A stretch of 64,000 nt of DNA from an uncultured Victivallaceae bacterium (GTDB lineage: Bacteria > Verrucomicrobiota > Lentisphaeria > Victivallales > GWF2-50-93): assembly GCA_964636325.1 (NCBI GenBank), contig CAZWRV010000019.1:10471-74470 (forward strand), written 5' to 3'. Position 1 is the stretch's first letter. Each line of letters begins with the position of its first letter. Both the position numbers and the translations under genes were made by a program. Positions 17,344-51,433 of this stretch are shown here, in pieces. The notes under the pieces were generated by a model, which was given only the letters and a program-made list of their open reading frames with translations, made no database searches and was not told the DNA's origin.

Positions 17344-17391
17344 CTCACATCTCATTGAATATTTTTTGAATATCCAATATCCAATCATCCA

Positions 17392-19568: not shown

Positions 19569-19600
19569 CGGCCGCGGTCGACCGCAATCGACTGCAGTCG
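19569..19600. repeat. 10-bp-period array (family B, CG-RYYGCRRY-CG), 3 units
   Basis: cg gccgcggtcg accgcaatcg actgcagtcg. Confidence 0.75.
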
Positions 19601-23464: not shown

Positions 23465-23500
23465 TCCGCAGCCGTCCTCGAGACGGCTGCGGATTTTATT
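23465..23500 (+). terminator. Rho-independent terminator
   Basis: 12-bp perfect stem TCCGCAGCCGTC/GACGGCTGCGGA, 5-nt loop, then TTTTATT. Confidence 0.75.
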
Positions 23501-23523: not shown

Positions 23524-23552
23524 TTGACTGACATTAACGTTAATGCTATAAT
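23524..23552 (+). promoter_or_regulatory. Sigma70 promoter with embedded 14-bp palindromic LacI-type operator
   Basis: TTGACT-17 nt-TATAAT. The spacer contains the perfect palindrome CATTAACGTTAATG (23532-23545). Confidence 0.8.
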
Positions 23553-25384: not shown

Positions 25385-25453
25385 CGCAGGTATTCCTACC
25401 TGCGATGCCGCAGACAGGAAGGTCTGCGTTACTTCAGGCGAGTTTCAGAGGAG
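25316..25453. repeat. Composite element (family C): conserved framework with internal hairpins
   Basis: AATCGAGTTTCAG..AGTG..[hairpin]..TTTGTCGGTCG-GAAACTTAAGTA-GCGCAGGTATTCCTACCTGCG..CAGACAGGAAGGTCTGCG-TTACTTCAGGCGAGTTTCAG-AGGAG. Homologous to 50114-50387. Confidence 0.8.
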
Positions 25454-25458
25454 TTTCA

Positions 25459-27279
25459 ATGACGTACAGGGCTCTAATTCTAATCGGAGCGATTTTTGCG
25501 GCTTTTCCATTGGGTGCGCAGGAGGCGGTCAAGCAGGAAAAAGCCGCTGCGGAAACGCCCGCCGACATCCGCCGCCAGATCGAGGCGCTGCATTCGGAGT
25601 CGCCCGAGGCGAGGATGCTGGCGGCCTATGCGCTGGGGGAGCTTGGAGCGGCCGAGGCGGTTCCGGAGCTGATCGCGCTCCTCGGCGACCACGGCCCCAC
25701 GCATCAGAAAAAGATGCATGTCTGGCAGCCGCCGGACGTATACTGGGGTCTCTCGTTGTCGTCGCCCGGTCGAGAGGCGGCGAGGGCGCTGGTCAAGATT
25801 GGTGCGCCGTCGGCCGAGCCTCTCCTGGCGGTTTTGAAGGATCCGAAGAATTCCGGCCTTCCCAACGCGATCTGGGCGCTGGGTGAAATGCGTGAGCCGC
25901 GGGCCGTGGATTTCCTGCTGACCCGCCTGTGGGATGTCGGAGCGATTGTGGCCATAGGCAAGCTCCGCGAGCCCCGGGCAGCGCAAGGTCTCGTAAACCA
26001 GCTCGACAACGACTGGATCCGCTACGAAACGAGGTCGGCTCTTGTGCAAATCGGAAGGCCGTCGGTAGAACCTCTGATCGACGCTCTCAAGAACAAGGAC
26101 TTGAAGGATCAGAAGTCGAAGATTCGATCCTCCGCGGCCGAGCTTCTCGGCAGGATGGAAGTAAAGGAGGCACTTGAACCACTGATGGCCGCGGCTTTGG
26201 AGGACAATGCCGAACTGCGCTACCGCGCGGTCGAGGCGGTCGGAGTCATGGCGGGCAAGGATGACGCGAAGGCCGCAGAACTGCTGCGTGGCATGCTCAA
26301 GGACAAGGACTGGCGCGTGCGGGAACTTGCTGCGGTCGCGCTCGGACGCCTCGGCTGCGCCGCGGCCGCACCGGAAATCCGCGCGCTGCTGGCGGATCAG
26401 GACCTGACCGTGCGGGGCCGGGCGGCACAGGCTCTGGCAGCGATTGGCGACAAGACGTCCAGTCCGGATCTGCTCAAGTTGCTCGACGACAGAAAGCCGT
26501 TCCCGAAGAAATGCGCGGTCGAAGCGTTGGGCGCATTGAAGGAGCCCAAGGCCGTGAAACAGCTTTCGGCCCTTCTCAAAAAGGGCGACCCCGACTTGCG
26601 CCGTGCCGCGGCCGGCGCTCTCGGCCAGATCGGCGACCCCGCAGGAATAGCACCTCTTCTTGCCGTCATGGCGGACGATGACCAAGTTCTGAGGAAGATT
26701 TCAGCCGAATCGCTCGGCAAGATCGGAGCGCCGGCCGCCGCCCCGCTGGCCGACGCGATGAAGAGCATCAAGGACGGGCCGGACTCGGACAAGTCGTATG
26801 CGACGGCAAAACTTGCGGCGGTCGCCCTCGGAGAGCCCGCGGTTCCCTCGATGACGGGGCTTCTAGCATGCGGGAACTGGCGTGCGGAGGTCACCGCCGG
26901 GGACGCTCTGCGAGAAATGGGCGAGCCCGGAATCCAGGCGCTCTTCGCCGCGGCAAAGGCCGGCAAATGGCGCGCCATCCACCCCATCAGCCTGCTCGAC
27001 AAGGACAAACGGGCGCCGGATGTCCTGGTCGAGGCATTGAAATCCGGACCTGACGCCGTCAGAAAGGCGGCGGCGGAAGGGCTCGGCCGGCTGAAGCCGC
27101 GCCAGGCCGCAGTCTTCAACGCACTCGTCGCCGCTTTGGACGACAAGAGCGCGGAAGTCAAGGACAAGGCGGAATGGGCGCTCGGCGAGATCACTCGGCA
27201 GTATCTGGGCAAGGCCCCCGCAAAGTGGCGCGAATGGTGGAAGGCGAACGGAGCCAGATTCCTGGAGGGCAAGCTATGA
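25459..27279 (+). CDS. Exported HEAT-repeat (PBS lyase-like) protein
   Basis: Signal peptide MTYRALILIGAIFAAFPLGA and more than 12 repeats of the type VRxxAAxALGxLG. Confidence 0.85.
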   Translation: MTYRALILIGAIFAAFPLGAQEAVKQEKAAAETPADIRRQIEALHSESPEARMLAAYALGELGAAEAVPELIALLGDHGPTHQKKMHVWQPPDVYWGLSLSSPGREAARALVKIGAPSAEPLLAVLKDPKNSGLPNAIWALGEMREPRAVDFLLTRLWDVGAIVAIGKLREPRAAQGLVNQLDNDWIRYETRSALVQIGRPSVEPLIDALKNKDLKDQKSKIRSSAAELLGRMEVKEALEPLMAAALEDNAELRYRAVEAVGVMAGKDDAKAAELLRGMLKDKDWRVRELAAVALGRLGCAAAAPEIRALLADQDLTVRGRAAQALAAIGDKTSSPDLLKLLDDRKPFPKKCAVEALGALKEPKAVKQLSALLKKGDPDLRRAAAGALGQIGDPAGIAPLLAVMADDDQVLRKISAESLGKIGAPAAAPLADAMKSIKDGPDSDKSYATAKLAAVALGEPAVPSMTGLLACGNWRAEVTAGDALREMGEPGIQALFAAAKAGKWRAIHPISLLDKDKRAPDVLVEALKSGPDAVRKAAAEGLGRLKPRQAAVFNALVAALDDKSAEVKDKAEWALGEITRQYLGKAPAKWREWWKANGARFLEGKL

Positions 27280-28991: not shown

Positions 28992-29033
28992 CGATTGCAT
29001 TCGAATGCGGTCGGCCGCAATCGATTGCAGTCG
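28992..29033. repeat. Family B 10-bp array, 4 units
   Basis: cg attgcattcg aatgcggtcg gccgcaatcg attgcagtcg. Confidence 0.75.
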
Positions 29034-29863: not shown

Positions 29864-29885
29864 CGACTGCGGCCGAGCGCAGGCG
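29864..29885. repeat. Family B array, 2 units
   Basis: cg actgcggccg agcgcaggcg. Confidence 0.55.
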
Positions 29886-29917: not shown

Positions 29918-32900
29918 ATGTTCAAAGGCGTCCTTAAGGCGATGTCGGCGGCGGGATTTGTTTCGGCGGTCTATCTGGCGCTGGCCGGAGGGACGGCGCT
30001 GGGGCTTCAGTATCCGGCCGAGAAAATCCCGGTTCTGAACGTTCCGAAGATGAAGGCGCCGCCTAAGATTGACGGAGTGATTGATCCGGCGGAATGGAAG
30101 GATTCGGCGCGGGTCATGGGCGTTGTCTCAACTTCGAGCCTGGCCTACAAGGATCGTCCGGTGTCTTTCAATGTCGCATGGGACGACGAGCATCTCTACA
30201 TCGCCGCGGTCAGCGACATTCTCCCCGGGCACCGGCTGTATAAAAGCCGCCGCGACCGCTTCACCACGGGCGTGGTCTTCGACGACAGCTACGAGTTCGG
30301 CATCTTCATGCACGACCGCAACAAGCTGCCGGAGGAGGTGAGCAGCTTCCAGAAGATCATCATCAATGCGCTTGGCGCCGGCGAATACATGAAGATATAC
30401 CCCTCGATCGGGCAGAACATGTACAACTGGCAGCCGGATCCGCAGATCGCCAACCGCATCTACGAGGAGAACGGCAAGCAGTGGTGGGCGCTGGAGGTGG
30501 CATTCAGCCTCTCCGACCTGCAGATGCCGGTCAAGAACAAGGCGGGAGACAAGGTGGACATGCTGCTTGCGGCGGACCTCAAGAACCCGGGATGGCAGTG
30601 GCTCGACTTCCCCAGCGCCTCCGGTCATCTCGAACACTACGGATTCACCAAGATGGTCCTGACCGAGAAGGAGCCCTATGTGCAGATCGAGCAGTTCAGC
30701 GGCCTGCACGACGAGAAGATCGATCTCAGGAGCGTCGTCCACAACCCCGGCTCCAAGCCGGTGACGGTCGAGGCGTCGGTCCAGGCGAACTACAATCCGC
30801 CGCCCAAGAGCGAGGAGAAGGCGCGGCAGTTCCTGGACGTCAAGAAGACGCTTGAGATTCCCGCGGGCGGCTCGGCCCGTTTCGACGTGGCCGAGGCGTT
30901 TCCGGGATTGAAATACGATAGGACGGAATGGGGCGGGGTTGTCAACGTCAGCAACCTCAAGCTATCTTTCTGCCGTGCGAATGCCGAAGACGCTCCGACG
31001 GTCTACAGCTACCATTGCGATTTCTCCGGAACCGACAAGAGCTATCTGACGGCGACTCCGCGGACAACTCCATTCGACTGCGGCGTCACGTTCAACCCGG
31101 CGAGCAACCAGATGAGCATCTTCGGCGACACGCTGGACGCCCGGATTCCGCAGGGCAGCCAGCCCGCCAAGCTCAAATACGTTGTCAGCCGCGACGGAAA
31201 GCCCATCCAGGATGGATTCATAGACCTCTTCGTCAATTTGAAGTATGAGGGTCTGGTGCCGCTCACGGATCCGCAGCCTGGAAAGTACCAAGTCACGCTC
31301 TCCCTGGTGGACAAGGACGGCAAGGTTCTTGTCAGCCGCGACGACATTTCTTTCGAGAAGAAGGACGAGGCCAAAGTCTTCGCCCACTGGTGGAACAACA
31401 AGATCGGCGATCCCGAGAAGGTGCTCAAGCCGTTCGAGCCGATCAGGGTGGACGGGGACAAGGCTGCGGTCACCCGCCGCATTTACACTCTCGACGGGCT
31501 CGGCCTGCCGCGCCAGATCGAATCCAATGGCGGCAACGTCCTCTCCGCGCCGGCACGGATCGTGGTGAAGGTCGCCGGAAAGGAACACGTGGTGCCGACC
31601 GACGGCACGGTGACATACAAAGACAAGAAAGACTGGCGCACGGAATTCACGGGCAAGGCCTCGGTGGCCGGCATCGCCTTCACCGTCAATGGCTGGATGG
31701 AGCAGGACGGCCTCGTGAACCTAGACCTCACCTACGCGCCCGCTGCTGCGGCAGCCCCCGGTTCGGTTGCGACGGCAGCCCCTGCCGTCGCATTGGAAGA
31801 CCTCCGCGTCGAATGGCCTGTGGACGGTTCCGAAGGCAGTTGGATGCAGTGCATCGGGGGCGTCGGCGGCAACTACGCGCCGCGGACGATCGGCATGGTG
31901 CCGGAAGGCGAAGGCCAGGTGTGGGACTCGCTCAAGGACATCGGCAAGGCCGGTTCCAAGATGCTCCTCGGCAACTGGGAGAACAACCTCTGGGTCGGCA
32001 ACGACCGGCGCGGACTGTGCTGGTTCGGCGACAGCGACCAGGGATGGGTTCCGGACGACAAGACTCCGGCCCACAGCCTTTTCCGCGACGGGAAGGCGGT
32101 GGTCATCCGCAACCACATCGTCAATCTTCCGGCCGGCGCGCCCGCCTTCAAGCTTGATGCGCCGCGCACCATCAACCTCCAGTACAACGCCACCCCGTTC
32201 CGCCATCTCGCAAAGGGCTGGCGCCTCACACAGGTCTCTGCGTGCAACGGATTCTCGTCAAAGGACTGGAAATTCGACGAGGACGACAAGAAGGACTATT
32301 TCACCATTTTGAGCATGCCTTCGAAGGATCCGGCCAAGTGGCCTTATTATCTGGAGAAATACAAGAAGATCGCCGATTCCAAGGCGCGCCCCGGCGGCTT
32401 CTTCAGCATCGGGCCCCGCCTCGGAATGCACCTCAACAACCAGATCGCTCTGCGCGGCTACGACAGAAAGACCCGCGAGCCCGGGCTCTACGAATACTTC
32501 GCCGCCGACTGGGACACCGAATTCGACGGCGAATCTCTCAACAAGACCTACCGCGACTACATGCTCTACCTCATGAACATGCACGTGCGCGACGGCGGCT
32601 TGGCGCACTACTACTTCGACATCAGCTTCACCCGTTCGACGTCGGCGCTAGCGGCAGGCTTCGGCTACCGTCTCCCCGACGGGCGCGTCCAGCCCGCCAG
32701 CATGGACGGCCCGCTTCGCGAGTGGTACAAGCGCGTCTGGGCGCTGATGCAGGAATACGATTTCTATCCCGGCGGAGTCTCCGGCCACGCGACTCATTCA
32801 ATACCGTTGCGCGCGATGCCCTGGACGGACAGCATGCTCGACGCGGAATATCCGATCAAGGATGCGGTTACGGTCTACACCAAGGACAGCATGATCGCCA

Positions 32901-33850
32901 TGTCCGTGCCTCACAACTTCGGAGTCAAAATTGACCACCACGGCCACATGGATCCGCGCTGGCCCACGATGTTCGACGCAGGCATGGGCGGCGGCGGCGG
33001 ACAGTTCAACACCCCGGCCTTCCGCCATTTCGGAATCGCCGCGGACGACGTGGAGTTCCTCGGCTTCTGGCGAAACGGTGAAATCATAAAGCCCGCCGAC
33101 AAGGGGGTGCTGGTCTCCGCCTGGAAGCGCCCCGGCAAGCTGATGCTGCAAGTTTTCAACTACGGGCTCGATCCAGAAGGGCAGGAGAAGACCCGCTCCG
33201 GGAAGATGAAGCTCGATCTGAAGGCTCTTGGCGTTCCTCCGGGAATCCAGCCCGGCCAGGTCCGTGTCCGCGAGGCCGTGGTCGATCAGGAAAACCGCGT
33301 CTCGGAGCGGAGCGCAATATTCGCCTGGTACCAGCATCTTCTTGAACAGCCGCGCTGGCCGAAGGATCAGGCGCCGCGGATCAGGCCGGCGCTCAATCCC
33401 AGCATCAACACCGACGGCTGGATCGATGACGTGCATGTCTATTACCATGACTGCCGCTTCCTTGAAATCACCTGGGACGACGCTCCGCTCAAACGGGATG
33501 CCGTAGCCGATGCCGTCGGCTTTGACAATGTCGAGAGCGCCCTCAACTGGGGCTTCAGCCGTGCCGCGTCCGCGGACGCCGACGTGAAGAGCGCCTCGGA
33601 GGGGGTCGCCGTCAAGGCCTGGAAGCAGCCGGGCACTGCGATGCTCCTTGTCAAAAACACGTCGGCAGATGGCAAGCCGCTTGACGCCGCGCTCGCTGCC
33701 GACCTCGACAAACTTGGCGTAAAGGTGCAAAAGCTCTGGAATTCATATACCCAGTGCCTGGGCGGAGAACTCGACCCGGTCACAGGAGCTATAACCGTAA
33801 AAGGACTTAAGCCCGGCGAGCAGCGCCTGGTTTTCATAGACACGTTCTGA
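29918..33850 (+). CDS. Secreted putative glycoside hydrolase (CBM9-like + DUF6067/GH123-like), paralog 2
   Basis: Signal peptide; PPKIDGVIDPAEW, AWDDEHLYIA; GLCWFGDSDQGW, HYYFDIS, GRVQPAS...LREWYKRVW. Confidence 0.6.
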   Translation: MFKGVLKAMSAAGFVSAVYLALAGGTALGLQYPAEKIPVLNVPKMKAPPKIDGVIDPAEWKDSARVMGVVSTSSLAYKDRPVSFNVAWDDEHLYIAAVSDILPGHRLYKSRRDRFTTGVVFDDSYEFGIFMHDRNKLPEEVSSFQKIIINALGAGEYMKIYPSIGQNMYNWQPDPQIANRIYEENGKQWWALEVAFSLSDLQMPVKNKAGDKVDMLLAADLKNPGWQWLDFPSASGHLEHYGFTKMVLTEKEPYVQIEQFSGLHDEKIDLRSVVHNPGSKPVTVEASVQANYNPPPKSEEKARQFLDVKKTLEIPAGGSARFDVAEAFPGLKYDRTEWGGVVNVSNLKLSFCRANAEDAPTVYSYHCDFSGTDKSYLTATPRTTPFDCGVTFNPASNQMSIFGDTLDARIPQGSQPAKLKYVVSRDGKPIQDGFIDLFVNLKYEGLVPLTDPQPGKYQVTLSLVDKDGKVLVSRDDISFEKKDEAKVFAHWWNNKIGDPEKVLKPFEPIRVDGDKAAVTRRIYTLDGLGLPRQIESNGGNVLSAPARIVVKVAGKEHVVPTDGTVTYKDKKDWRTEFTGKASVAGIAFTVNGWMEQDGLVNLDLTYAPAAAAAPGSVATAAPAVALEDLRVEWPVDGSEGSWMQCIGGVGGNYAPRTIGMVPEGEGQVWDSLKDIGKAGSKMLLGNWENNLWVGNDRRGLCWFGDSDQGWVPDDKTPAHSLFRDGKAVVIRNHIVNLPAGAPAFKLDAPRTINLQYNATPFRHLAKGWRLTQVSACNGFSSKDWKFDEDDKKDYFTILSMPSKDPAKWPYYLEKYKKIADSKARPGGFFSIGPRLGMHLNNQIALRGYDRKTREPGLYEYFAADWDTEFDGESLNKTYRDYMLYLMNMHVRDGGLAHYYFDISFTRSTSALAAGFGYRLPDGRVQPASMDGPLREWYKRVWALMQEYDFYPGGVSGHATHSIPLRAMPWTDSMLDAEYPIKDAVTVYTKDSMIAMSVPHNFGVKIDHHGHMDPRWPTMFDAGMGGGGGQFNTPAFRHFGIAADDVEFLGFWRNGEIIKPADKGVLVSAWKRPGKLMLQVFNYGLDPEGQEKTRSGKMKLDLKALGVPPGIQPGQVRVREAVVDQENRVSERSAIFAWYQHLLEQPRWPKDQAPRIRPALNPSINTDGWIDDVHVYYHDCRFLEITWDDAPLKRDAVADAVGFDNVESALNWGFSRAASADADVKSASEGVAVKAWKQPGTAMLLVKNTSADGKPLDAALAADLDKLGVKVQKLWNSYTQCLGGELDPVTGAITVKGLKPGEQRLVFIDTF

Positions 33851-33861: not shown

Positions 33862-33885
33862 GCGACTGCGGCCGGCCGCAGTCGC
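33862..33885. repeat. Family B array, perfect 24-bp palindrome
   Basis: GCGACTGCGGCCGGCCGCAGTCGC. Confidence 0.75.
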
Positions 33886-33913: not shown

Positions 33914-34978
33914 ATGATTCGCAACGGGAAAATCACGGCATCCGACATCAAGCGTCACGCGCTGGAGATCGGAGCGGATATTGTCGGCATCGGCAACATA
34001 GAACGTTGGAAGGGCAGCCCCCGCCAGATGGACCCCCTGCAGATCATGCCCGAGTGCAGGTCAGTTATCGTCTGCGGCTTCCGCGTGATGCGCGGCAGCC
34101 TCCGCGGAGTCGAGGAAGGGACGATGTTCAGCAACTACGCCGCGATGGGCTACGGCGGCGTCACATACATACGCATGCCTCCGGTGATGTGGGGCCTTGC
34201 GGGATTCATCGAGGATGCCGGCTACGAGGCGATGCCGCTGGGTCAGATCGACTGCTGGCGCTCCTACGACGATGCCGGAAAAGTCTGGGACGGCTTCAGC
34301 CGTCCGGTGGCCGAGGGCAGGGCGGCCCCCGACGTTTCGCCCCACACCCGCGTCGCGGCATATCTCGCCGGGCTCGGCGAATTCGGCTGGAGCAAGGTCT
34401 TCCTCAATCCGAAATACGGACCGCGCGTCCGCTACGGCCTCGTGCTGACCGAGCTAGAGCTCGAACCCGATCCGATCTACAGCGGGCCGAAACTATGCAA
34501 CAAGTGCATGGCCTGCGCCAGGGAATGCCCCGCCAGGGCCATAACAAGCGATCCGAACAATTCTGAAGGTATAACTTTCGCCGACGGCTCCAGGATCGAG
34601 TGGGGAAAGTTCGACGCCGTCCGATGCTGCAACTGCTTCAGCGGCGGCGAGATACCTGAAGACCAGGAGAGCATCAAGCCGGAAGACGCCTATTCGAACT
34701 GGCTCGGAATGAAGTCGGTGCGAGGTTCGCACGGCCCCTTCTACAGGAAGCCGGCGCCCGTCTACTACACAGGCCAGGCCGTCTGCGGAGGGAAGGGATG
34801 CGTCCGCGCATGCATGATGAGCCTTGAGGCGCGCGGAGCGGTCGAAAACACTTTCCACCAGAAGTTCCGCCGCCGCAAGCCCTGGGCGATAGACTGGTCC
34901 AAGCCGGCACCTGCGATAGAGCATCCCGTCAAGTCATTCGCCGCCCAGGCTGAAAAGCCGAAAGACGACGTCTCATGA
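33914..34978 (+). CDS. QueG/reductive-dehalogenase-superfamily protein (cobalamin + 2x[4Fe-4S], putative)
   Basis: GADIVGIG, AYLAGLGEFG...NPKYGPRVRYGLVLTELELEPD, CNKCMACARECP and a second Cys cluster CCNC...CGGKGCVRAC. Confidence 0.75.
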   Translation: MIRNGKITASDIKRHALEIGADIVGIGNIERWKGSPRQMDPLQIMPECRSVIVCGFRVMRGSLRGVEEGTMFSNYAAMGYGGVTYIRMPPVMWGLAGFIEDAGYEAMPLGQIDCWRSYDDAGKVWDGFSRPVAEGRAAPDVSPHTRVAAYLAGLGEFGWSKVFLNPKYGPRVRYGLVLTELELEPDPIYSGPKLCNKCMACARECPARAITSDPNNSEGITFADGSRIEWGKFDAVRCCNCFSGGEIPEDQESIKPEDAYSNWLGMKSVRGSHGPFYRKPAPVYYTGQAVCGGKGCVRACMMSLEARGAVENTFHQKFRRRKPWAIDWSKPAPAIEHPVKSFAAQAEKPKDDVS

Positions 34979-36030
34979 AGTTCTCCATCGGCTACCAGCT
35001 TCCCGGAGAAGGCGGAGAACGTTTTTCGGATGTGGTCCGGGAATATTCTCCACAGATCGCCGAAGTCTATTTCCCCTGGGCGGACCAGCCGAGCGGCCGC
35101 GCGGCTTTGAATGTCCGGCGCGGTTATGTCGACTGGAAGGCGCAGGAGGAAATGGAGGCCGAGCTCCGCGAAATCTGCGGGATGGGTGTCCGGCTGAACC
35201 TGCTTTTCAACGCCAGCTGCTACGGAGGACGCGCCATCAGCGAGCATCTCGAGCACCAGGTGGCGTCGGTGATCGAACATCTCTCTGAGATACTGGGGCG
35301 TCTGGACGGAGTGACCACGGCTTCGCTGGCCGTGGCCAACACTATGAAACGGCATTTCCCGGACGTGAAGGTCCGGGCATCCGTCAACATGCGGATCGGG
35401 ACTGTGCATGCCATGGAATATGTAGGGCACCTCTTCGACGAATACTGCGTGCAGCGCGAGATGAACCGCGACATCGAGAAAATCCGCGAACTTCGCAGAT
35501 GGGCCGACGCAAACGGAAAGGGAATCAGCATCCTGGCGAACAGCGGCTGCCTGAGGCATTGCAGCGGCCAGACATTCCACGACAACCTGGTGGCGCACGA
35601 ACAGGAGGTGGACGAGACGCGCAACACCTCGGGCTGGTCGCCGATACTGTGCCGGCATGTCGTCGGCGCAGCGGGCGGAAGACACCATGTCCTGCGGGCG
35701 ACCTGGATCCGGCCGGAGGACATCGGCCGTTATGAAGGTGTAATTGATCTGGTGAAACTCGCGACAAGGATGCACGAGCGGCCGCGGATGGTCGTCGCAG
35801 CATACGCCAACCGACGGTTCCACGGCAATCTGCTCAACCTCTTTGAGCCAAGCCATACTGCCGCATTCGACGGTTGCTGGATTGACAACGACGCGTTTCC
35901 CACCGACTGGTTCGAGCATACCTCGGAGTGTGTCCGTCGAGACGGTGAATGCGCCCGTTGCAATGAAATACTGAAAACGGTGCTGAAGGAGTCTGGCCCG
36001 GAGGAGTATATCTTCATCGAAAAGTTCTGA
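34975..36030 (+). CDS. Peptidase U32-like Fe-S protein
   Basis: VYF, LNLLFNASC, ASVNMRI, REMNRD, ILANSGCLRHC...H...H...C, WIRPEDI, KLATR. ATGA overlap with the upstream gene. Confidence 0.7.
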   Translation: MKFSIGYQLPGEGGERFSDVVREYSPQIAEVYFPWADQPSGRAALNVRRGYVDWKAQEEMEAELREICGMGVRLNLLFNASCYGGRAISEHLEHQVASVIEHLSEILGRLDGVTTASLAVANTMKRHFPDVKVRASVNMRIGTVHAMEYVGHLFDEYCVQREMNRDIEKIRELRRWADANGKGISILANSGCLRHCSGQTFHDNLVAHEQEVDETRNTSGWSPILCRHVVGAAGGRHHVLRATWIRPEDIGRYEGVIDLVKLATRMHERPRMVVAAYANRRFHGNLLNLFEPSHTAAFDGCWIDNDAFPTDWFEHTSECVRRDGECARCNEILKTVLKESGPEEYIFIEKF

Positions 36031-36039: not shown

Positions 36040-36079
36040 ACTGCGGTCGATTGCGGCCGTTCGCGGTCGGCTGCGACCG
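36040..36079. repeat. Family B array, 4 units
   Basis: actgcggtcg attgcggccg ttcgcggtcg gctgcgaccg. Confidence 0.75.
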
Positions 36080-36088: not shown

Positions 36089-39000
36089 ATGAAAAAAATC
36101 TTTAAAACCGCCGTTCTGTCGGGGGCGGCGCTAGCCGCATGCTTCGTAGTTCAAGCTGAAGAGAAGCTTTCTGACGACGACATCCGCTGGCGCGAAAAGA
36201 TCGGATTCAACCCGCAGGTGCACGCCTCGGTTGAGAATTCCTCCGACGCGGAAGTTTTCGCCCGGGCTCCGTATGCGTATTATCCTTACTCAAACGAGCT
36301 TGAAGTGGTGTTTGATCTTGCCGCGGCCGTCAAACTCCTGCCGGCGGACTCGCCGAAGCCTTCGGGAGGTCTGAACTCCGTGGAAGTTATGGTCTTTCCC
36401 GTCGTAATTACCCAGGAAGAATTCGCGGAGTTTGCGCACTTTTACGCGCCGAATCCCAAGGTACCGCCCGATCTGGACAAGCCAGTTGCTTGCGGCAAGA
36501 TCCCGCTCGATGGCAAGGGCCGCGGCCATGGCATCTTCAAAATACCGGATATGCCGGACGGCAACTACCGGGTCGTGTATGAATATGGCGGCGCAAGGCT
36601 CACGGCATCAAGAACTTTCAGAAGGTCTCATTTCGAATGGGAGCGCTGCAGATATGGAACCGAGCACAAGGTTTACGCCCCGTTCACGCCGGTCGCGGTG
36701 GACGGAAACAAAGTGTCCGTCGCCGACCGGACATACGCGATCAACTCCTTCGGGCTTTTCGACAGCGTGATCAGCAAGGGCCGGGAACTGCTCGCAGAGC
36801 CAATGAAGCTTGTCGCCGAAAAGACGGACGGTTCGCGCATCGCTTGGAAGGCCGGGAAGATAAGCGGCAAGGCGGTTTATGCGGATCTCGCGGAATTCAA
36901 ATGTTCCACGGAATCGGAGATAGGTACGCTGCAATCTGAAGTTTCGATCGAGGAGGACGGCTGTGCGAAAATCGCAATGACGCTGACACCTGTCACCCGA
37001 CACCAGACACCTATCCGCCGAGCCTGGCTCGAGATCGCTCTCAAGGAAACGGAAGCGCCTCTCTGCCACATGGTCGGCATGAACTCGATGCGGCACAACT
37101 ATGCGGGGAATGTCCCTCGCGGCGGGAAGATAACCTGGCTCAACCAGCCTTGGCGCCCGGCGCGCTTCGAGGTTCAGCCATTCGAAGGCGAGACACCCGC
37201 CTCATATCAGGTATGGGAGGCGAACAACCAGATGCACTGGGGGGGCGAGAGATGGAATTTCGCGCCTTATGTCTGGCTGGGCGCGGAGGAGCGCGGGCTG
37301 GCCTGGTTCGGCGATGACATCGGCGGATACAGCACCGACGGCAAAACTTCGCTGCAGCGGCTCTTTATCGAGCCGGGCAAAGTGGTTCTGCGGGTCGAAT
37401 TTATCCAGCAGCCTGTCACGCTGGAATCTCCACGCCGCTTTGTTTTCGGCCTGCAGGCGAGCCCGACGAAACCGATGCGTCCTGACTGGCGCGGCTACAG
37501 CGTCCCCGGCGGCGGCGGAATGTCGGTCGTGGTCTGGGGCGGCTTCAACTGCGCGGACAAGGTTCCGGCCAACAAGGACTGGACGATCGTGGATAAAGTG
37601 ATGGAAGGCCGCAAGACGGGCAAGCCCGACTTTGCGTGGTTCGCGGAATACGCGAAGACGCACAAGACGATTTCCGGCAGCGGCGGCGCGAAGGCCGGGC
37701 GCCTGCATGAGATAACGCTCGAAGAGGCGAAGGCCAACGGCCAGCCATGGCTCACCGCCCTGAACCATTTCGTCGCCAGGGAGGCGGGCGCACAGGCCGG
37801 CGTCGGCACCACCGTCTATTACGAGGAGCATCAGACAAGCGGAAACTATCCGGACGTTGCGGAGTTCATGGACGAATGGAGCGACTCCAGTTTCGCCCGT
37901 TACCGTTACTTCGACTATCCGAAGACGTGGGGGCCGGAATGCCGCAGCGCCAATCCGGAGAGCTACCGCGACTTCGCAGTCTTCTACGCCAACGAATGGA
38001 TGAAACGCGGAGTCGGCATCTATTACGACAACACTTATCCGATGGTGGACAGGAATCCGGAGCATTTCCGTGGACGTGGAATAACATGGTCAAGCAGCAT
38101 CTGGGGGCACCGCGACTATTACAAGCGCGTCTGGAAGCGGAGCCGGGAACTGATGGAGTCGGGTGCATCCCCGCTACCGCTGCACACAGTCGGCCATGTC
38201 ACAAACTGCCAGGTTCTGCCTTACACCACGTGGTGGGATGCGACGCTCGGGGTAGAATCTCCCGGCCAGTGGCAGCCGGACAAGATGCCGTCAGCCGAGG
38301 AGATGAGGAAATGCATTGAGGAATGGTCCTTCGTAATTCTTCCGGGTCCTAACAAGGATACGCCCGGCCAGGCACTGCCGTATCCTCCCGACTACCTGCG
38401 CGCGATGGAGATGGGCCGGATGGCGGGGCTGATCCCGCACTACAGGCACCTTCTGCGGAGCGAGGATGCGGTAGGCGGCCTCGGGATAAGCTTTGGAGCG
38501 ACCGACCAGGGCAGGGAGCCGGAACTGCGCGAGCACCGCCTCCTCTCCGACGCCGCGATGGGCATCGTCCATGAGATCCGCGGCGGTGCAAGCGGCTACG
38601 AGCATCCTAAGATAGGAGGGCTTCGTCGCTCAATCAATGACTTCGGATATGGAAAGCCCGGAGTCAAAGTATACAACTACTGGGATGAGGATCCTTTTGC
38701 GGCCAAAATAATAGGGCTCGGCAATCCAAAAGTGAAATGGCTTGCAATGACCCGCGACGGCGCGCCGTTCGGCATGATACTACTTCAAAGCTACAGTCCC
38801 GAGGCGTCAAGCACTTCGCTGATCTTCCCCGAGGGGAAAATATTCATCGACGCGGAAACCCGTGAAACGTTCCAGGCCGGAGCGGACGGGAGTGTGGAGA
38901 TAAAGCTGCCCGCCGACTACGGGACAAGGCTCTTCTATGTGCTCAGGAACGAAGGGGCGCCGAAGCTCCTGTCTAAAAGCGCAGATACGCTTCTTCTTGA

Positions 39001-39598
39001 CGACTTTGAACTCGGCCTCGGTTTCAACCTTGCTGTCCACGGCAAGGGCTTTGACGTCGTAAAGGACACAGATGTCCAGGAGAACCATGTTTTGAGGATA
39101 GTATCAGGCCATCCCTCGCAGAACGTCCTTGTCACGCAGGGGCTTGAGGATATGGCCGATTACGAGCTTTCGTTCAAGTTCCGGATTCCTGCAGTCCCCG
39201 CCGAGGCGGGCAAAGGCGGCCTCCTCCATCTCGGCTACCGCGATTCCGGCAGCCAGCGTTTCTATTTCGGACTGGGATATGAGGCTTGCAAGGACGGCAA
39301 GTCTTCATGGACTGTCTCGAGTCCGGTGATGGTCCTCGACGGCGGCAAGAACGAAGGCTACGGGAAGACCGTAGCGGCCAGCCCGGTCGAAGCTTCTGTG
39401 GACACCGAGTGGCATACGCTCGCCATCAAAGTCCAGGGGCCAAGGCACACGATCGCAATCGACGGGAAAACAGTCTTCGAAGGCGAGGACGAACGCAATC
39501 TCAAAGGCCCGTTCACGATCGCTCCCGGCTGGGGATGGAACAAGACCGAATATGTGGAGATCGACGAGATTTCAGTAAAATCCCTGAAACAGGAGTAG
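36089..39598 (+). CDS. Secreted putative glycoside hydrolase (DUF6067/GH123-like) with C-terminal ConA/LamG-like domain, paralog 3
   Basis: Signal peptide; VWLGAEERGLAWFGD, FVFGLQASPTKP, GIYYDNT, RDYYKRVW; C-terminal DYELSFKFR...WHTLAIKVQG...IDGK. Confidence 0.6.
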   Translation: MKKIFKTAVLSGAALAACFVVQAEEKLSDDDIRWREKIGFNPQVHASVENSSDAEVFARAPYAYYPYSNELEVVFDLAAAVKLLPADSPKPSGGLNSVEVMVFPVVITQEEFAEFAHFYAPNPKVPPDLDKPVACGKIPLDGKGRGHGIFKIPDMPDGNYRVVYEYGGARLTASRTFRRSHFEWERCRYGTEHKVYAPFTPVAVDGNKVSVADRTYAINSFGLFDSVISKGRELLAEPMKLVAEKTDGSRIAWKAGKISGKAVYADLAEFKCSTESEIGTLQSEVSIEEDGCAKIAMTLTPVTRHQTPIRRAWLEIALKETEAPLCHMVGMNSMRHNYAGNVPRGGKITWLNQPWRPARFEVQPFEGETPASYQVWEANNQMHWGGERWNFAPYVWLGAEERGLAWFGDDIGGYSTDGKTSLQRLFIEPGKVVLRVEFIQQPVTLESPRRFVFGLQASPTKPMRPDWRGYSVPGGGGMSVVVWGGFNCADKVPANKDWTIVDKVMEGRKTGKPDFAWFAEYAKTHKTISGSGGAKAGRLHEITLEEAKANGQPWLTALNHFVAREAGAQAGVGTTVYYEEHQTSGNYPDVAEFMDEWSDSSFARYRYFDYPKTWGPECRSANPESYRDFAVFYANEWMKRGVGIYYDNTYPMVDRNPEHFRGRGITWSSSIWGHRDYYKRVWKRSRELMESGASPLPLHTVGHVTNCQVLPYTTWWDATLGVESPGQWQPDKMPSAEEMRKCIEEWSFVILPGPNKDTPGQALPYPPDYLRAMEMGRMAGLIPHYRHLLRSEDAVGGLGISFGATDQGREPELREHRLLSDAAMGIVHEIRGGASGYEHPKIGGLRRSINDFGYGKPGVKVYNYWDEDPFAAKIIGLGNPKVKWLAMTRDGAPFGMILLQSYSPEASSTSLIFPEGKIFIDAETRETFQAGADGSVEIKLPADYGTRLFYVLRNEGAPKLLSKSADTLLLDDFELGLGFNLAVHGKGFDVVKDTDVQENHVLRIVSGHPSQNVLVTQGLEDMADYELSFKFRIPAVPAEAGKGGLLHLGYRDSGSQRFYFGLGYEACKDGKSSWTVSSPVMVLDGGKNEGYGKTVAASPVEASVDTEWHTLAIKVQGPRHTIAIDGKTVFEGEDERNLKGPFTIAPGWGWNKTEYVEIDEISVKSLKQE

Positions 39599-39984: not shown

Positions 39985-41007
39985 TTATTTGTTGAATCCG
40001 GGCTGGCCTTTGGCGGCGTCGACGAACGCCAGGATGTTATCGAGCGGGACGTCTCCTTCGACCGCATGTGCAGGCGCGAAGATATATCCGCCCCTGAGTC
40101 CCTTTTTCAAGAGCTTGTCGCTCTCGTTTCTCACTTCTTCCACGGAGCCCTTCGGGAGGGTCTGCTGGGTTGAAAGGCCCCCGTGGAACGCCAGCCTGCC
40201 GTGATACTTGTCCATCAACGCGAAGACGTCCATGACTTCCGGCTGGAAGGGATTGAAGCAGTTGAGGCCGATTTCTATGAGTTCGTCGAAGAGCTCGTCG
40301 ACGTCGCCGCAGGAATGGATGAAGACTTTCTTGCCTGCGGAGCGGACCTCTCCGTAGGCCCGTGCCAGGTGCGGTTTGATGAAGGTCCGCCAGATCTCCG
40401 GGCCCATCTGGAGTCCGATCTGCTGGCCCCAGTCGTCGCCGAAATAGACGGCGTCGACGTCCAGCTTGACGGCCCTCCTCACAAGTTCGACGTTGAAGTC
40501 GGTGATGCGGCGCAAAAGTTCCTCGACGAAGTCGGGGTGCTCGATGAAGTCCATCATGAGGTTTTCCATTCCTCGGAGAGTCCAGGCGCGTTCGTAGAGC
40601 GAGAATCCGATGGAGTAGACGCGGTATCTTTCCTGCGCGTTTTTTGATTTCAGGCCGTCGACTCCGCCCCAGAAGACCTGATCGTCTGGATCCGGAAATG
40701 AATAGCCGCGCAGTGACGGCTCGGGCAGGACGCAGCCCCTTACGATTCCGATGTCCTTGTCGACGCTCTTGTCCCAGACTACGCCGAAGACGTCCCTGAC
40801 GCAGCCGCCGCCGATGTCCTTGAAGAATCCTACGCCTCCCCCGATCCCGTGGATATGCGGCTGCAGGAAAGGATCAATATCCCTGGTTCCGAAATGTTCC
40901 TGCAGCATTTCCGCCGGCTCCTTGGTGAAAGCGAAGCTCCACGGCGTATAGGGGACGTCCTTCGATTCGACGGCAAGCTTTACTACATCCCTCTTTGGCA
41001 TCTTCAT
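39985..41007 (-). CDS. URO-D/MtaA-CmuA-fold protein (paralog 1, HSCG motif)
   Basis: FGDDWGQQ, KVFIHSCGDV, GGLSTQQTL, GGYIFAPAHAV; RBS GGAGGA. Confidence 0.85.
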   Translation of the reverse strand: MKMPKRDVVKLAVESKDVPYTPWSFAFTKEPAEMLQEHFGTRDIDPFLQPHIHGIGGGVGFFKDIGGGCVRDVFGVVWDKSVDKDIGIVRGCVLPEPSLRGYSFPDPDDQVFWGGVDGLKSKNAQERYRVYSIGFSLYERAWTLRGMENLMMDFIEHPDFVEELLRRITDFNVELVRRAVKLDVDAVYFGDDWGQQIGLQMGPEIWRTFIKPHLARAYGEVRSAGKKVFIHSCGDVDELFDELIEIGLNCFNPFQPEVMDVFALMDKYHGRLAFHGGLSTQQTLPKGSVEEVRNESDKLLKKGLRGGYIFAPAHAVEGDVPLDNILAFVDAAKGQPGFNK

Positions 41008-41149
41008 TGAGTCCTCCTTTTGCATATCTTTCTTATGGCCATTATATCCTTATTGCATCGGAGCCAAGATACTGCTGGAAACGCCGTTCCGGAATGGACA
41101 TAGGGGCTTTAAGCATGGACATTTGTGCAGAATGAGCAATATTATGTCC

Positions 41150-42010
41150 ATGCCGCAGAGTAAAAATGGGAATCTGAAAGTCCTCCTCAACGAGAGCGTG
41201 CAGTCCGCCTTGGACAACTTTTCCGGGTGCTTCGGGGCGAGGATCGCGTATTTCGCCACCGACATGCGCGAGCTCAAGGTCGGTCAGAAGAAGCGGATGT
41301 GCCGCTACTGCTCGCTGATCCGGTCAAGGCTTTACGGCGACGGACGCTGCCTGGAGCAGGACAGGGCCAAGCTGCAAGAGGCCTCGGAGAGGGGGTCGCT
41401 GCTGTCCTACACGTGCCACGGGGGCCTGGTCGAGGCGATAATTCCGGTCTATGCCGACGGCGTACTGATCGGCTTTGTAATGACCGGCCAGTTCCGTACG
41501 GTGTCCGCTCCGCCGAAGGGCGTATTGGATGACTGGACGCGCAGGTTCGGGAAGGCCGCCGAAATAAAATCCGCATTCATGGAAGTCCCCGAAATATCTT
41601 CCGTAAAACTGCCCAGCATGCTCGGGCTCTTCTCGATGCTGGTCCGCTCGATCGCGAAAGAGGGGATTGCCGGGATACAGGGAGACATGCTTGTCGAAAA
41701 GGTGCTGGACAGGATAAGGCGCGATCCTGCGAATCCGCCGACTCTGGCCGAAGCGGCCCGGCTGGCGGGACGCAGCCGCTCGTCGGTGTCCCACGCGTTC
41801 AAGGCCAGGCTTGGAAGATCGTTCAAGTCGTACGTCATAGACATGCGGCTGGCGCGCGCCGAAGAAATACTCTGCAACAGCCCTGGGTCGACAGTCAAGG
41901 AGGCGGCGTCAAGGATCGGATTCCAGGACGAGTTCTATTTCTCCAGGATATTCAGGAAATATCGGGGCTTCCCCCCGTCGGAGCTGGCAAGGCGCGGCCG
42001 GCGTCCTTGA
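41150..42010 (+). CDS. PocR ligand-binding domain + AraC HTH regulator
   Basis: CRYCSLIRS...YTCHGGLVEAIIPV...GFVMTGQF and C-terminal TVKEAASRIGFQDEFYFSRIFRKYRGFPPS. Confidence 0.88.
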   Translation: MPQSKNGNLKVLLNESVQSALDNFSGCFGARIAYFATDMRELKVGQKKRMCRYCSLIRSRLYGDGRCLEQDRAKLQEASERGSLLSYTCHGGLVEAIIPVYADGVLIGFVMTGQFRTVSAPPKGVLDDWTRRFGKAAEIKSAFMEVPEISSVKLPSMLGLFSMLVRSIAKEGIAGIQGDMLVEKVLDRIRRDPANPPTLAEAARLAGRSRSSVSHAFKARLGRSFKSYVIDMRLARAEEILCNSPGSTVKEAASRIGFQDEFYFSRIFRKYRGFPPSELARRGRRP

Positions 42011-46508: not shown

Positions 46509-47618
46509 TTATCCTCCTAGAACTTGGCGTTTGATATTCATATAATATTGGAAATCCGCAAATGAGATGTCCGGCGGTATAGCGTGGTCGATCCATGGAA
46601 TGTATCCTCCTCCGCGGATGACTGGTGCGAGCCTGGCGAGTTCCTTGTCAATCGCCTTCGGTCCTTTGGCAATCACTCGCTTGTCGACTCCGCCGACCAT
46701 GCAGAACTTCCTTCCATATTTCTTCCGCATTGCCACGGGATCCATCCCTGCCGCGACCTCCATCGGGTTGAATCCGTCCACGCCCGCCTCGAGGAACAGC
46801 GGGATCAACGCCTCGAAATCCCCGTCAGTGTCTACGATGGCGATCCTTATGCCGCAGTCTTTGAGAAACTTGATGTATCTACGGTAATGGTGGAGAAAAA
46901 ATTCCCCGAAGATGTTCGGGCCGATGAGCGGTCCCCCCTTGCCTGCGAGATCCTCATGTATGATGATGTAGTCGAACCGGACGTCGTTCAGCGCCCTCTC
47001 ATACAGCCTGATGATGTAGTCGCAGAGGAACTCAAGGCAGTCCTTGACGAGGACAGGATCGTCGTAGAACATATATGAGAGACGTTCCGTTCCGATCCAG
47101 GTGCGCAGCATGCTGTAGAATCCGAAGTCGCCCCATATCTGGTTGATGCAGACAGGATTCTCCGAGACGCGCGCTCTTTCCACGAATGAATCCCAGTCAT
47201 TGGGATAACGGGCTTCCAACCCGCCTTCGTAGCGCCTGCGCATCTCCCCGAAGCTTGCACGGTTCTTGACGGCGAAGTCGATGTAGTGGTCCATGCAGAT
47301 GCTCGTATATTTGCCGTCGACCTTCAACCCTTGGCGCGTGCGGCCGAAAGAGTCGATGAAGTAAAGATATTCCGGCGTCTCGCTCAGAATCCTGTGTTCA
47401 AATTGCGGAAGGGGGCCGGACGGATTAATTCCGGTTGCCAGGCATCCGTCCAGGTTGAAATATTTGTTTCCGGCCAGGAAGCATCCGTCGAGATCGGCTG
47501 GAGCGCCTTCGCGGATCCAGCGTTCCCGGGTCTGGCCCCAGAGGCCGATTTCCAGGTTCGGAACCCGGTCCACGGCCTTGAACTGAAGCGTGTTGACAAA
47601 ACGTTCCTTAGGTGTCAT
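46509..47618 (-). CDS. URO-D/MtaA-CmuA-fold protein (paralog 2, DTDG motif)
   Basis: MTPKERF...VDRVP, HEDLAGKGGPLIGP, IVDTDGD, GGVDKR, GGYIPWIDHAIPPDIS. Confidence 0.85.
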   Translation of the reverse strand: MTPKERFVNTLQFKAVDRVPNLEIGLWGQTRERWIREGAPADLDGCFLAGNKYFNLDGCLATGINPSGPLPQFEHRILSETPEYLYFIDSFGRTRQGLKVDGKYTSICMDHYIDFAVKNRASFGEMRRRYEGGLEARYPNDWDSFVERARVSENPVCINQIWGDFGFYSMLRTWIGTERLSYMFYDDPVLVKDCLEFLCDYIIRLYERALNDVRFDYIIIHEDLAGKGGPLIGPNIFGEFFLHHYRRYIKFLKDCGIRIAIVDTDGDFEALIPLFLEAGVDGFNPMEVAAGMDPVAMRKKYGRKFCMVGGVDKRVIAKGPKAIDKELARLAPVIRGGGYIPWIDHAIPPDISFADFQYYMNIKRQVLGG

Positions 47619-50413: not shown

Positions 50414-51433
50414 TCAGCGACGGCGCAGTTCCTGGAAGCATTCGTCGTAGAAGAGCGCGGCTTCGACGGGGGTGTTGTGCGGTATCATGTTTGTGACGCC
50501 CATGAAGAATCCCGGGCATTGCTTCCCGATCGTCATGCATCTTTCGACCTCCGCGCGGATTTCAGCGCGGTTGCCGCGCAGTAGGATGCGTGTGTCGGCG
50601 TTCCCGATGAAGAAGTGAGTCCTTCCGTAGCGTTCAGCCACCCGGCTCATGTCCGTGAGGGGCTCCATGAAGAATCCGTGAGCGCCGGTGCCGGCGACGT
50701 CGTCGATGAACTCGGTGTAGTCGCCGTCGCTTAGGAACAGCACCTTCTTGCCTGCGTCGATCAGCGGCGCATAGAGCTTCTTCAGGTTCGGGAAGATATA
50801 TTTCCGGTAGAATCCAGGCGCGAATATCGCACCCTCGGTCCAGACTATGTCGTCGTGGCTCGCGATGAGAGGCGCGTCGCATTCGGCCATGGCGTTGTAG
50901 TATTGCTGCATCCAGGAGCCGTAGCGATTGAGGATTTCGCCGAATCCGTCAGGATCCTGTCCGGCCATGGCGAGCAGCATCTCCCACCCGAAGACGTATA
51001 TGCATCCTGTGAGCAAGGTGATGTATGTGCCGGTCGAGCAGGCCGTGTTGGGATTGTCCTCGCAGACTTGGCGGTAATGGTTGTCGAAACGCTCCACCAG
51101 TGAGCGGTGATCCTTTTTCCCGAAAGTCTCCCACGGATCGAAGCGGAGAGCCGTTTCAATATCGACGAATGCCTCGCTTAGCAGAGGCTGGAAATCTACG
51201 GATCCCGCCTCGTATTCGGCGTGGCCCATCTGGGTGCGGCAGGCGGCAAGCTCGTCGGCATGCAGCATGGTCGAAGGAGTAAGATCATAATCCCATGCCT
51301 TGCGGAATGCACGGGAGGCCCGGCCGCGCTCTTCAGGAGGGCTCTCGGGCGTCACATGGATTCCGGTCACAGCCCCGACTAGTTCCCAGTGGCGGTCAGC
51401 ATCGAATTCGACGCGTGCGACTTGGTCCGTCAT
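50414..51433 (-). CDS. URO-D/MtaA-CmuA-fold protein (paralog 3, LSDG motif)
   Basis: HDDIVWTEGAIFAPGFYRKYIFP, KKVLFLSDGDY, GNADTRIL, GFFMGVTNMIPHNTP. Confidence 0.85.
   Translation of the reverse strand: MTDQVARVEFDADRHWELVGAVTGIHVTPESPPEERGRASRAFRKAWDYDLTPSTMLHADELAACRTQMGHAEYEAGSVDFQPLLSEAFVDIETALRFDPWETFGKKDHRSLVERFDNHYRQVCEDNPNTACSTGTYITLLTGCIYVFGWEMLLAMAGQDPDGFGEILNRYGSWMQQYYNAMAECDAPLIASHDDIVWTEGAIFAPGFYRKYIFPNLKKLYAPLIDAGKKVLFLSDGDYTEFIDDVAGTGAHGFFMEPLTDMSRVAERYGRTHFFIGNADTRILLRGNRAEIRAEVERCMTIGKQCPGFFMGVTNMIPHNTPVEAALFYDECFQELRRR

Follow-up and report, generated by a model that had tools for sequence, protein, structure and literature searches.

A 64,000-nucleotide stretch of DNA from an uncultured Victivallaceae bacterium (assembly GCA_964636325.1, contig CAZWRV010000019.1, positions 10,471 to 74,470; hereafter the window) carries two overlapping genes, A and B, between two large genes whose products look exported. 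We found that A and B occur together far above chance, that protein A is, by sequence and fold, a minimal member of the superfamily of reductive dehalogenases (RdhA) and epoxyqueuosine reductase (QueG), and that protein B has a U32-like fold. Our preferred reading, to which we give a probability of about 45%, is that the two form a conserved cytoplasmic redox module for the reductive cleavage of C-O or C-X bonds, acting in this organism on an imported product of the flanking proteins. Full-text searches on the pair or its context found no paper on it, and we regard A as founding a new clade within the class III B12-type enzymes, one that has a novel type of partner.

A and B form a conserved gene pair

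Both genes lie on the plus strand (Table 1), and the start codon of B is placed over the TGA stop codon of A, which suggests that their translation is coupled. A longer reading of the A open reading frame (ORF) begins at 33860. However, AGGAGG precedes the ATG at 33914 by 3 nt, and an identical gene of 354 amino acids was called independently on two contigs of the same organism (L006 and L007); we therefore place the start of A at 33914. Judged by eye, neither N-terminus is hydrophobic or twin-arginine. The first-pass annotation of the window had described an ATGA-overlapped pair without signal or Tat peptides, and both points were confirmed. A search of expression data found the sequence in no RNA run.

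A scan of one genome per species yielded 583 places with a relative of A, and the 80 best of these loci belonged to at least ten phyla, among them Lentisphaerota (Victivallales), Planctomycetota, Armatimonadota, Verrucomicrobiota (Kiritimatiellia), gut and rumen Clostridia, Spirochaetales, Chloroflexota, Fibrobacterota and Omnitrophota. The family was common in metagenome-assembled genomes (MAGs) from rumen, caecum, digester and hot spring. At 90% identity it falls into over 1200 protein clusters, and its members are about 55% identical across phyla. Proteins at least 68% identical to window A form a subclade of their own; all other family members, the main clade, are about 55% identical to it.

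For the count of co-occurrence, a locus was testable if it had enough flanking sequence to judge, and in A-seeded loci B had to lie on the same strand within 2.5 kb. B accompanied A in 64 of the 69 testable A-seeded loci (93%), and A adjoined B in 51 of the 57 testable B-seeded loci on metagenome contigs (89%). The distance matrices of the two proteins correlate as well (Mantel r = 0.46, 95 pairs; none of 999 permutations reached this r). This test replaced a correlation of A and B by their identity to the window proteins, which had been uninformative. That is, the pairing is far above chance, and the conservation of the pair, on which its earlier description as a coupled unit depended, holds.

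The gene orders found were IclR-A-B, A-IclR-B, A-B and B-A. Of 130 main-clade loci, 57 had an IclR gene in the fetched sequence, no further than 10 kb from A. We considered this recurrent third gene as a candidate third subunit and rejected the idea, since it encodes a full-length IclR-type regulator. Clostridial loci carry a divergent AraC gene in its place, and their neighbours are mostly unannotated proteins. When the 125 nearest other neighbours were classed by Pfam, no family dominated beyond the regulators. Two minor groups recurred: esterases of the alpha/beta-hydrolase or SGNH type (DLH/AXE1-like, BD-FAE, DUF4886), and PF12831 FAD oxidoreductases, whose full-length genes directly adjoin A-B in loci L094, L060, L101, L102 and L156 and in one case are inserted between A and B with overlapping stops. 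In the window itself, a 250-residue ORF (16636-17388, minus strand) aligns with the PF12831 model over the N-terminal half of the model alone and is possibly truncated. Since A-B often has its own IclR regulator and its remaining neighbours vary, gene content indicates that it is in general a self-contained, ligand-regulated two-gene module and not a component of glycan loci.

The window's subclade is associated with GH123_N-like proteins

The subclade behaves differently. Relatives of the GH123_N-like proteins that flank the pair in the window were found near A in 5 of 9 distinct subclade loci versus none of 130 main-clade loci (Fisher p = 3e-7), and URO-D genes in 4 of 9 versus 5 of 130 (p = 9e-4), where the nine loci are a small and non-independent sample from related MAGs. 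The GH123_N-like neighbourhood is kept where A is only 69-86% identical to window A. Since the main clade includes many Lentisphaerota loci, the association is not merely a taxon effect. The subclade also differs in a predicted pocket motif, which reads Q111-I-D113 versus H-Q-S-D in the main clade. The link to a glycan locus proposed in the first-pass annotation is supported for the window's subclade by this association; across the family it is not, most copies standing alone with an IclR or AraC gene.

These data bear on the rival that survives best, although we consider it unlikely: a generic, mobile module for detoxification or small-molecule catabolism, whose position between the flanking genes would be irrelevant to sugars, which would act on a compound without relation to what the flanking proteins produce, and for which plant or microbial phenolics or methoxylated aromatics would be candidate substrates. 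In most loci, IclR-A-B or AraC-A-B indeed stands by itself with unrelated genes around it. The best scores of the IclR genes, albeit weak, are with the aromatic-acid regulators PcaR/PcaU/PobR, and esterases recur beside the pair. In addition, palindromes that resemble repetitive extragenic palindromes (REP-like, see below) bracket A-B in the window in the manner of a cassette. What such a module would not lead one to expect is the restriction of the GH123_N-like neighbourhood to one subclade and its retention at the identities given above. A pocket motif of its own is, by comparison, what would be expected of a recruited and re-specialised paralog.

Protein A stands nearer to reductive dehalogenases than to QueG

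We compared A with curated family models, with sequences of known structure and with known folds. It scored 64.7 bits with the NCBIfam reductive dehalogenase (RDH) model TIGR02486 (residues 148-216; curated cut-off 160.35) and 30.3 bits with the QueG model TIGR00276 (residues 147-213 only; cut-off 200), and so reached neither cut-off. Pfam returned only sub-threshold ferredoxin motifs and, at an E-value of 0.01, neither DUF1730 (PF08331) nor a HEAT domain. With a profile of 46 homologs, the best match in the PDB was Desulfitobacterium PceA (1.9e-15, 59.6 bits), followed by NpRdhA (6e-11) and Sulfurospirillum PceA (9e-11); QueG (3e-5, 26 bits) came behind all RdhA matches. Foldseek searches with the AlphaFold model of A (predicted local distance difference test, pLDDT, 78; predicted template modelling score, pTM, 0.81) placed PceA (1e-9), NpRdhA (1e-8) and QueG (7e-8) on top. 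All 46 PDB matches at or below 1e-3 were chains of these three proteins, and no flavin nitroreductase was among the significant matches. CblC/MMACHC (3som, 5uos) came next at an E-value of about 1e-2, a weak match through which the B12-binding core fold is still detectably similar; unlike A, CblC has no ferredoxin module.

By modelled fold and conserved cysteines, protein A has the architecture of the class III superfamily, a nitroreductase-derived B12 core followed by a two-cluster ferredoxin module. Its eight invariant or nearly invariant cysteines are enough for the two predicted [4Fe-4S] clusters (Table 1). Tyr85 aligns with Tyr246 of PceA, and does so with two different PceA structures, through HMMER segments of low score; a tyrosine of this type is the sole active-site residue common to class III B12 enzymes (PMC4646009). 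Arg173, an arginine in all 46 sequences, aligns with Arg305 of PceA, which is specific to RdhA and missing from QueG (PMC4646009). By alignment, Y85/R173 of A thus correspond to the RdhA active-site pair (Y246/R305 in PceA, Y426/K488 in NpRdhA). The position after the invariant P108-x-G110 aligns with PceA Asn272 and QueG Asp130.

With QueG (5d6s, 5d08, 5t8y), A shares the superfamily fold, the layout of the redox chain, the cytoplasmic site and a similar size. It differs in that DUF1730 and the C-terminal, tRNA-binding helical repeats are missing, the chain ending shortly past the second cysteine motif. The D-Y-H motif (D100-Y101-H102 in St QueG, with the catalytic Asp D130) is replaced by T84-Y85-I/L86, and the position of D130 is Q in the subclade and H in the main clade. 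In addition, A carries the arginine that QueG lacks (PMC4646009) and is found with IclR or AraC-type regulators. The 64-kb window contains no other QueG-like gene. The description of A as a QueG-like cobalamin/Fe-S protein therefore stands as regards cobalamin/Fe-S kinship, whereas the QueG label does not, A being nearer to RdhA. The first-pass annotation had itself treated A as other than a canonical QueG, and the scores bear this out.

Similarity to RdhA extends further. Among the known enzymes (PceA of Sulfurospirillum multivorans and Desulfitobacterium, 4uqu and 8q4h; cytosolic NpRdhA, 4ras and 6zy0) A finds its best sequence and fold matches, and it shares with them the two ferredoxin-type cysteine motifs, an A-G-L-G-E...G-P-R-x-R core and the putative Tyr/Arg proton-donor pair. 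Like cytosolic RdhAs it has no signal peptide, and no Tat leader was seen by eye. In contrast to RdhA, its 354 residues begin at the start of the RdhA core, without an N-terminal unit, and include an insertion of about 30 residues (109-148) and an invariant charged loop (56-89). Among the clustered, Pfam-scanned neighbours no anchor-like (rdhB) or reductase gene recurred beside the pair, membrane-protein prediction not having been run; the partner is instead U32-like. We conclude from sequence that A is neither QueG nor a curated RdhA, but a minimal cytoplasmic member of the superfamily on the dehalogenase side. By analogy, A-B would work most like a cytosolic RdhA.

Could A simply be a cytosolic (catabolic) reductive dehalogenase of natural organohalides, with B as an accessory? 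We think this improbable. PceA and NpRdhA are its nearest solved relatives, the Tyr/Arg pair is conserved, and the tandem double-A proteins described below (around 770 residues) recall the duplicated core of NpRdhA. Short RdhA-like proteins of a 'simplified cytosolic' type, about 395 residues long, are described in a recent survey of RdhA-like diversity (PMC12219181); the terms 'U32' and 'Planctomycetota' do not occur in its searched passages. However, the RDH score remains far below its cut-off, A is more uniform across phyla than the highly divergent RdhAs, neither a Tat leader nor a recurrent RdhB-like anchor or reductase among the nearest neighbours accompanies it, and A is common in MAGs from rumen, caecum, digester and hot spring. 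We know of no rdh operon with a U32-like partner.

Comparably improbable is a nitroreductase-derived fold that has no cobalamin, with A serving as an Fe-S/flavin reductase or redox partner and B as the catalytic protein. Cobalamin binding is unreadable from sequence (PMC4646009), homologs of B outnumber those of A among the matches listed (at least 4179 versus at least 1244), and B stood without A in 6 of the 57 testable loci. Against this, every significant fold match of A is a B12 enzyme (RdhA, QueG or CblC) and none a flavin nitroreductase, the residues that match the proton-donor pair of RdhA are conserved, and A persists where B has decayed (see below).

Many relatives of A (P0253, P0266, P0267, P0259, P0296 and some 40 more) measure 730-836 residues and consist of two tandem A-like modules, with two ferredoxin motifs and weak DUF1730 matches in the middle of the protein; they are reminiscent of NpRdhA with its duplicated cobalamin core. 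They had been candidates for A-B fusions, that is, for 'Rosetta stone' evidence, and were rejected as such since both modules are A. Tandem separate A genes exist at L013, L030 and L054. Matches to A or B on plasmids were remote relatives only. One of them, on Priestia megaterium plasmid pBMG6 (L177, 6884-8227), is a 448-residue protein annotated as SCP2 sterol-binding, and so as a lipid-binding protein, whose N-terminal region is 26% identical to residues 17-213 of A and whose gene adjoins TetR, SDR, fabF and MaoC genes.

Protein B has a U32-like fold outside the U32 family

Protein B scored 19.2 bits with the Pfam U32 model (PF01136, residues 98-177), below the gathering cut-off of 22.4. NCBIfam gave no match even at an E-value of 1, and the family profile of B matched no PDB sequence. 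In a Foldseek search with its AlphaFold model (pLDDT 88), the best PDB match was the U32 protein Mk0906 (5d88; E = 8e-9; TM 0.70 normalised to the target), and generic TIM barrels followed at about 1e-5, roughly three orders of magnitude weaker. The fold of B is thus predicted to be the U32 TIM barrel. A weak hhalign alignment of residues 109-187 with residues 88-163 of Escherichia coli UbiU would put C192 of B at C169 of UbiU, the first cysteine of the U32 signature; C192 is the only cysteine of B that can be placed opposite a UbiU ligand in this weak alignment.

The U32 signature reads E-x-F-x2-G-[SA]-[LIVM]-C-x4-G-x-C, and its glutamate and both cysteines are essential in TrhP and RlhA (PMC6599085). 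It is missing from B, which has L184-x2-L-A-N-S-G-C192-x3-C196-x-G-Q199-x-F-H-D-N instead. Four cysteines of the barrel are compatible with one [4Fe-4S] cluster, and a further motif of four cysteines lies near the C-terminus. In the window, position 323 of this motif (35941-35943) is Asp, whereas 43 of 45 relatives have Cys, and position 328 (35956-35958) is Arg, whereas 41 of 45 have Tyr. Relaxed selection on window B was considered as well; the count of deviations, 7 at 132 conserved columns (median 4, maximum 10), was not decisive.

Like the U32 proteins UbiU/UbiV, TrhP, RlhA and Mk0906, B is predicted to be a TIM barrel, and it is one of a gene pair, as are UbiU/UbiV and YrrN/YrrO. Unlike them, it stays below the Pfam cut-off and has no NCBIfam match, a replaced signature and an additional C-terminal cysteine motif, and its partner is RdhA-like and not a second U32 or an SCP2 protein. 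On this evidence from motifs and modelled fold, B is a U32-fold protein of the Fe-S type outside the U32 family as currently defined. The term 'U32-like' in the first-pass annotation was right about the fold and goes too far if read as family membership. The step of O2-independent hydroxylation that was assigned to B finds no support, since the Glu and the C-x6-C that are essential in TrhP/RlhA are missing, and a hydroxylase label is not justified by the data. A remote homolog of B (23% identity over 95% of B) is encoded on Clostridium felsineum plasmid p330 (L176, 8995-10065), where its gene belongs to a lengthy series of hypothetical genes on one strand and immediately follows the genes for two proteins of some 1370 residues, a layout that recalls the window.

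That the pair modifies RNA, with A as a QueG-type epoxyqueuosine reductase and B as a TrhP/RlhA-type pyrimidine C5 hydroxylase, we regard as very improbable: the nearest named families of both proteins include RNA-modifying enzymes and some source annotations call A 'epoxyqueuosine reductase', but A misses the QueG model by a wide margin (30.3 versus 200 bits), has no DUF1730, D-Y-H motif or C-terminal HEAT-like domain and carries the RdhA-specific arginine (PMC4646009), B is without the essential U32 motif (PMC6599085), and the pair's own IclR/AraC regulators, its tandem paralogs and its patchy occurrence do not fit.

The locus around the pair

The two flanking proteins are distant paralogs (24% identity over 389 residues, E = 3e-21), and both match Pfam GH123_N (1e-13 to 1e-16). 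Neither matches a GH123 catalytic domain in Pfam, and neither matches a PDB sequence, even with a nine-member family profile. The first-pass annotation had called them two hydrolase paralogs; the paralogy is confirmed, and 'hydrolase' is plausible but unproven. A third paralog (19726-23235) and a HEAT-repeat gene (25405-27279) also encode signal-peptide-like N-termini, judged by eye. As the flanking proteins look exported and A and B look cytoplasmic, any product of the former must first be imported. This weakens the earlier idea that A and B act on a product released by the flanking proteins, for which the subclade-specific GH123_N association still speaks.

Three paralogous URO-D genes on the minus strand lie within 12 kb of each other (Table 1). 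Their scores, all of which stay far under the cut-offs, are better with MtaA/CmuA than with HemE. The three genes adjoin a PocR-AraC regulator gene (41123-42010), another AraC gene and a GH2 gene. No corrinoid protein (PF02310) was found among the scanned large ORFs of the window, and no cobalamin riboswitch or other RNA element in the window. The locus also includes LacI/GntR-type regulators, with a LacI-type gene at about 24.2-25.4 kb, and DUF1559 genes, which are type-IV-pilin-like and typical of the Planctomycetota-Verrucomicrobiota-Chlamydiota (PVC) group. From the LacI/GntR and AraC/PocR regulators and the GH2, DUF1559 and URO-D genes, the window is probably a sugar-polymer (glycan-type) locus. 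The source organism is present in hot-spring metagenomes, and its closest relatives are Victivallales MAGs. Unrelated to A and B are, on the minus strand, a gene for an AbiEii-type nucleotidyltransferase toxin (53441-54355) and one for a 704-residue protein with an ADP-ribosylglycohydrolase domain (47756-49870).

A REP-like palindrome, GACTGCGG-N4-CCGCAGTC, occurs in five copies with at most 3 mismatches in the window, versus 0.54 expected. All five appear to lie between plus-strand genes, from 19.7 to 39.6 kb, where the copy at 29003 assumes a pilin-like gene start at about 29060. Two of them flank the pair and none lies between A and B: the perfect copy separates the upstream GH123_N-like gene from A with its ribosome-binding site, and the degenerate copy comes right behind B's stop codon. 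At locus L091 (see below), a related copy stands behind what remains of B. The palindromes may be intercistronic RNA hairpins or operator sites. Further upstream we observed a strong terminator-like hairpin (23465-23493) and then a sigma-70-like promoter with 11 of 12 matches (23524-23552); the latter region is likely the start of a long plus-strand operon that would contain A and B.

Table 1. Position of features in the window (position 1 is the first nucleotide of the window).
Feature	Position	Strand	Description
Gene A	33914-34978	+	354 aa; minimal RdhA/QueG-superfamily protein; cytoplasmic site, cobalamin and two [4Fe-4S] predicted
Gene B	34975-36030	+	351 aa; predicted cytoplasmic TIM-barrel protein with U32-like fold
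ATGA overlap	34975-34978	+	B start codon over A stop codon (TGA)
A Tyr85 codon	34166-34168	+	Aligns with PceA Tyr246; Tyr in 41/46 family members
A Q111-I112-D113	34244-34252	+	Subclade motif after invariant P108-x-G110; main clade H-Q-S-D
A Arg173 codon	34430-34432	+	In invariant G-P-R-x-R; aligns with PceA Arg305, NpRdhA Lys488
A first ferredoxin motif	34496-34531	+	C195-x2-C198-x2-C201-x3-C205-P; invariant in 46/46
A second cluster ligands (predicted)	34625-34813	+	C238, C291, C296, C300; three invariant, C291 in 44/46
B invariant Cys	35218-35652	+	C82, C192-x3-C196, C226; presumed [4Fe-4S] ligands; C192/C196 within N-S-G-C-x3-C-x-G-Q-x-F-H-D-N
B C-terminal motif	35929-35961	+	C319-x3-(C)323-x2-C326-x2-C329; C-x3-C-x2-C-x2-C in relatives
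Palindrome	33864-33883		GACTGCGG-CCGG-CCGCAGTC; perfect; full 12+12 stem 33862-33885
Degenerate palindrome copy	36049-36068		3 mismatches
All palindrome copies	19570-19589, 29003-29022, 29865-29884, 33864-33883, 36049-36068		REP-like
Upstream GH123_N-like gene	29918-33850	+	1310 aa; signal-peptide-like N-terminus; relatives flank A in 5/9 subclade loci
Downstream GH123_N-like gene	36089-39598	+	1169 aa; signal-peptide-like N-terminus; C-terminal 3-keto-disaccharide-hydrolase/DUF1080-like domain
URO-D family gene	39985-41025	-	Best curated match MtaA/CmuA methylcobamide methyltransferase, far below cut-off
Two more URO-D family genes	46509-47618, 50414-51433	-	Paralogs of the above

Proposed mechanism

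According to our preferred reading, the two putative [4Fe-4S] clusters of A would pass electrons to a base-off cobalamin, whose Co(I) or Co(II) chemistry would remove a leaving group from a carbon atom of a small molecule. Tyr85 and Arg173, predicted to lie above the corrin, would protonate this group as in RdhAs; candidates are a halide, a hydroxyl, an ether or epoxide oxygen and a methyl group. B would be made in 1:1 coupling with A and dock to it as a dedicated partner, contributing either electron input or output or an adjacent step that prepares the substrate; we think it unlikely to be a pathway enzyme in its own right. In most organisms A-B would be an inducible unit under its own IclR regulator. 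The subclade with the Q-I-D pocket would have been recruited into the operon of the exported GH123_N-like proteins, and the substrate in the window would be a small product of these proteins that is imported into the cytoplasm.

Several observations weigh against this reading. About 10% of the testable loci hold one partner only. At L091, the ortholog locus closest to the window's, where A is 86% identical and the flanking genes are the same, A is intact, while B is a 340-nt deletion remnant: the pseudogene, at 11062-11342, joins residues 1-21 to residues 276-340 or thereabouts, and the middle 250 or so codons are deleted. At L011 (A 86% identical) no B was seen, where only 1.9 kb upstream of A are covered. 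Apparently, A can persist without a local B. Together with the Asp at position 323 of window B, these two loci suggest that the subclade A either does not need a local B or receives it from another source. Conversely, at L013 a main-type A and a subclade A stand in tandem before a single B, so that one B can serve two A paralogs. From the remnant beside an intact A at L091 and the single B at L013, B looks more like a shared partner than like a fixed second catalytic step, and the state of B in the closest ortholog locus makes an obligatory A+B pathway doubtful. Thus, the two-step module that had been proposed for the pair is weakened.

Further points on the same side concern the proteins themselves and the size of the sample. 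Because no sequence motif marks cobalamin binding in class III enzymes (PMC4646009), B12 binding of A is predicted from its fold alone. The model of A that supplies this fold has no more than moderate confidence (pLDDT 78), and in it part of the best-conserved loop (residues 62-83 of 56-89) is of low confidence. The low-scoring segments behind the Tyr85 alignment, the missing U32 signature of B and the nine related loci behind the subclade statistics belong here as well.

A more specific version, which is speculative and which we consider improbable, sees A and B as one Fe-S-wired complex that cleaves ethers or O-methyl groups anaerobically, for instance in O-methylated sugars from glycans. 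Co(I) of A would attack the methyl or alkyl carbon, the Tyr/Arg pair would protonate the leaving alkoxide, and the methyl group on cobalt would next pass to the MtaA-like URO-D proteins. B might instead oxidise the carbon without O2 and deliver the electrons to A, so that the reaction would be redox-neutral overall. The main clade would act likewise on methoxylated or ether compounds sensed by the IclR regulator. If true, this cleavage on sugars would be a reaction that no known enzyme carries out.

Implications

Just two types of reaction, dehalogenation and the reduction of epoxyqueuosine, have been established for class III cobalamin enzymes that contain Fe-S clusters. The authors of the QueG structure predicted that further class III families exist and are hard to find (PMC4646009). 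The family of A is large and highly conserved and occurs throughout the major groups of anaerobic polymer degraders, namely Lentisphaerota, Planctomycetota, Armatimonadota, Kiritimatiellia and gut Clostridia, and its partner B comes from a second poorly understood Fe-S superfamily. Being small, under a ligand-sensing regulator of its own and divided into two subclades that differ in pocket residues and neighbourhood, the module would offer a tractable route to a new B12 reaction, and possibly also to an unknown step in the anaerobic breakdown of glycans or plant material.

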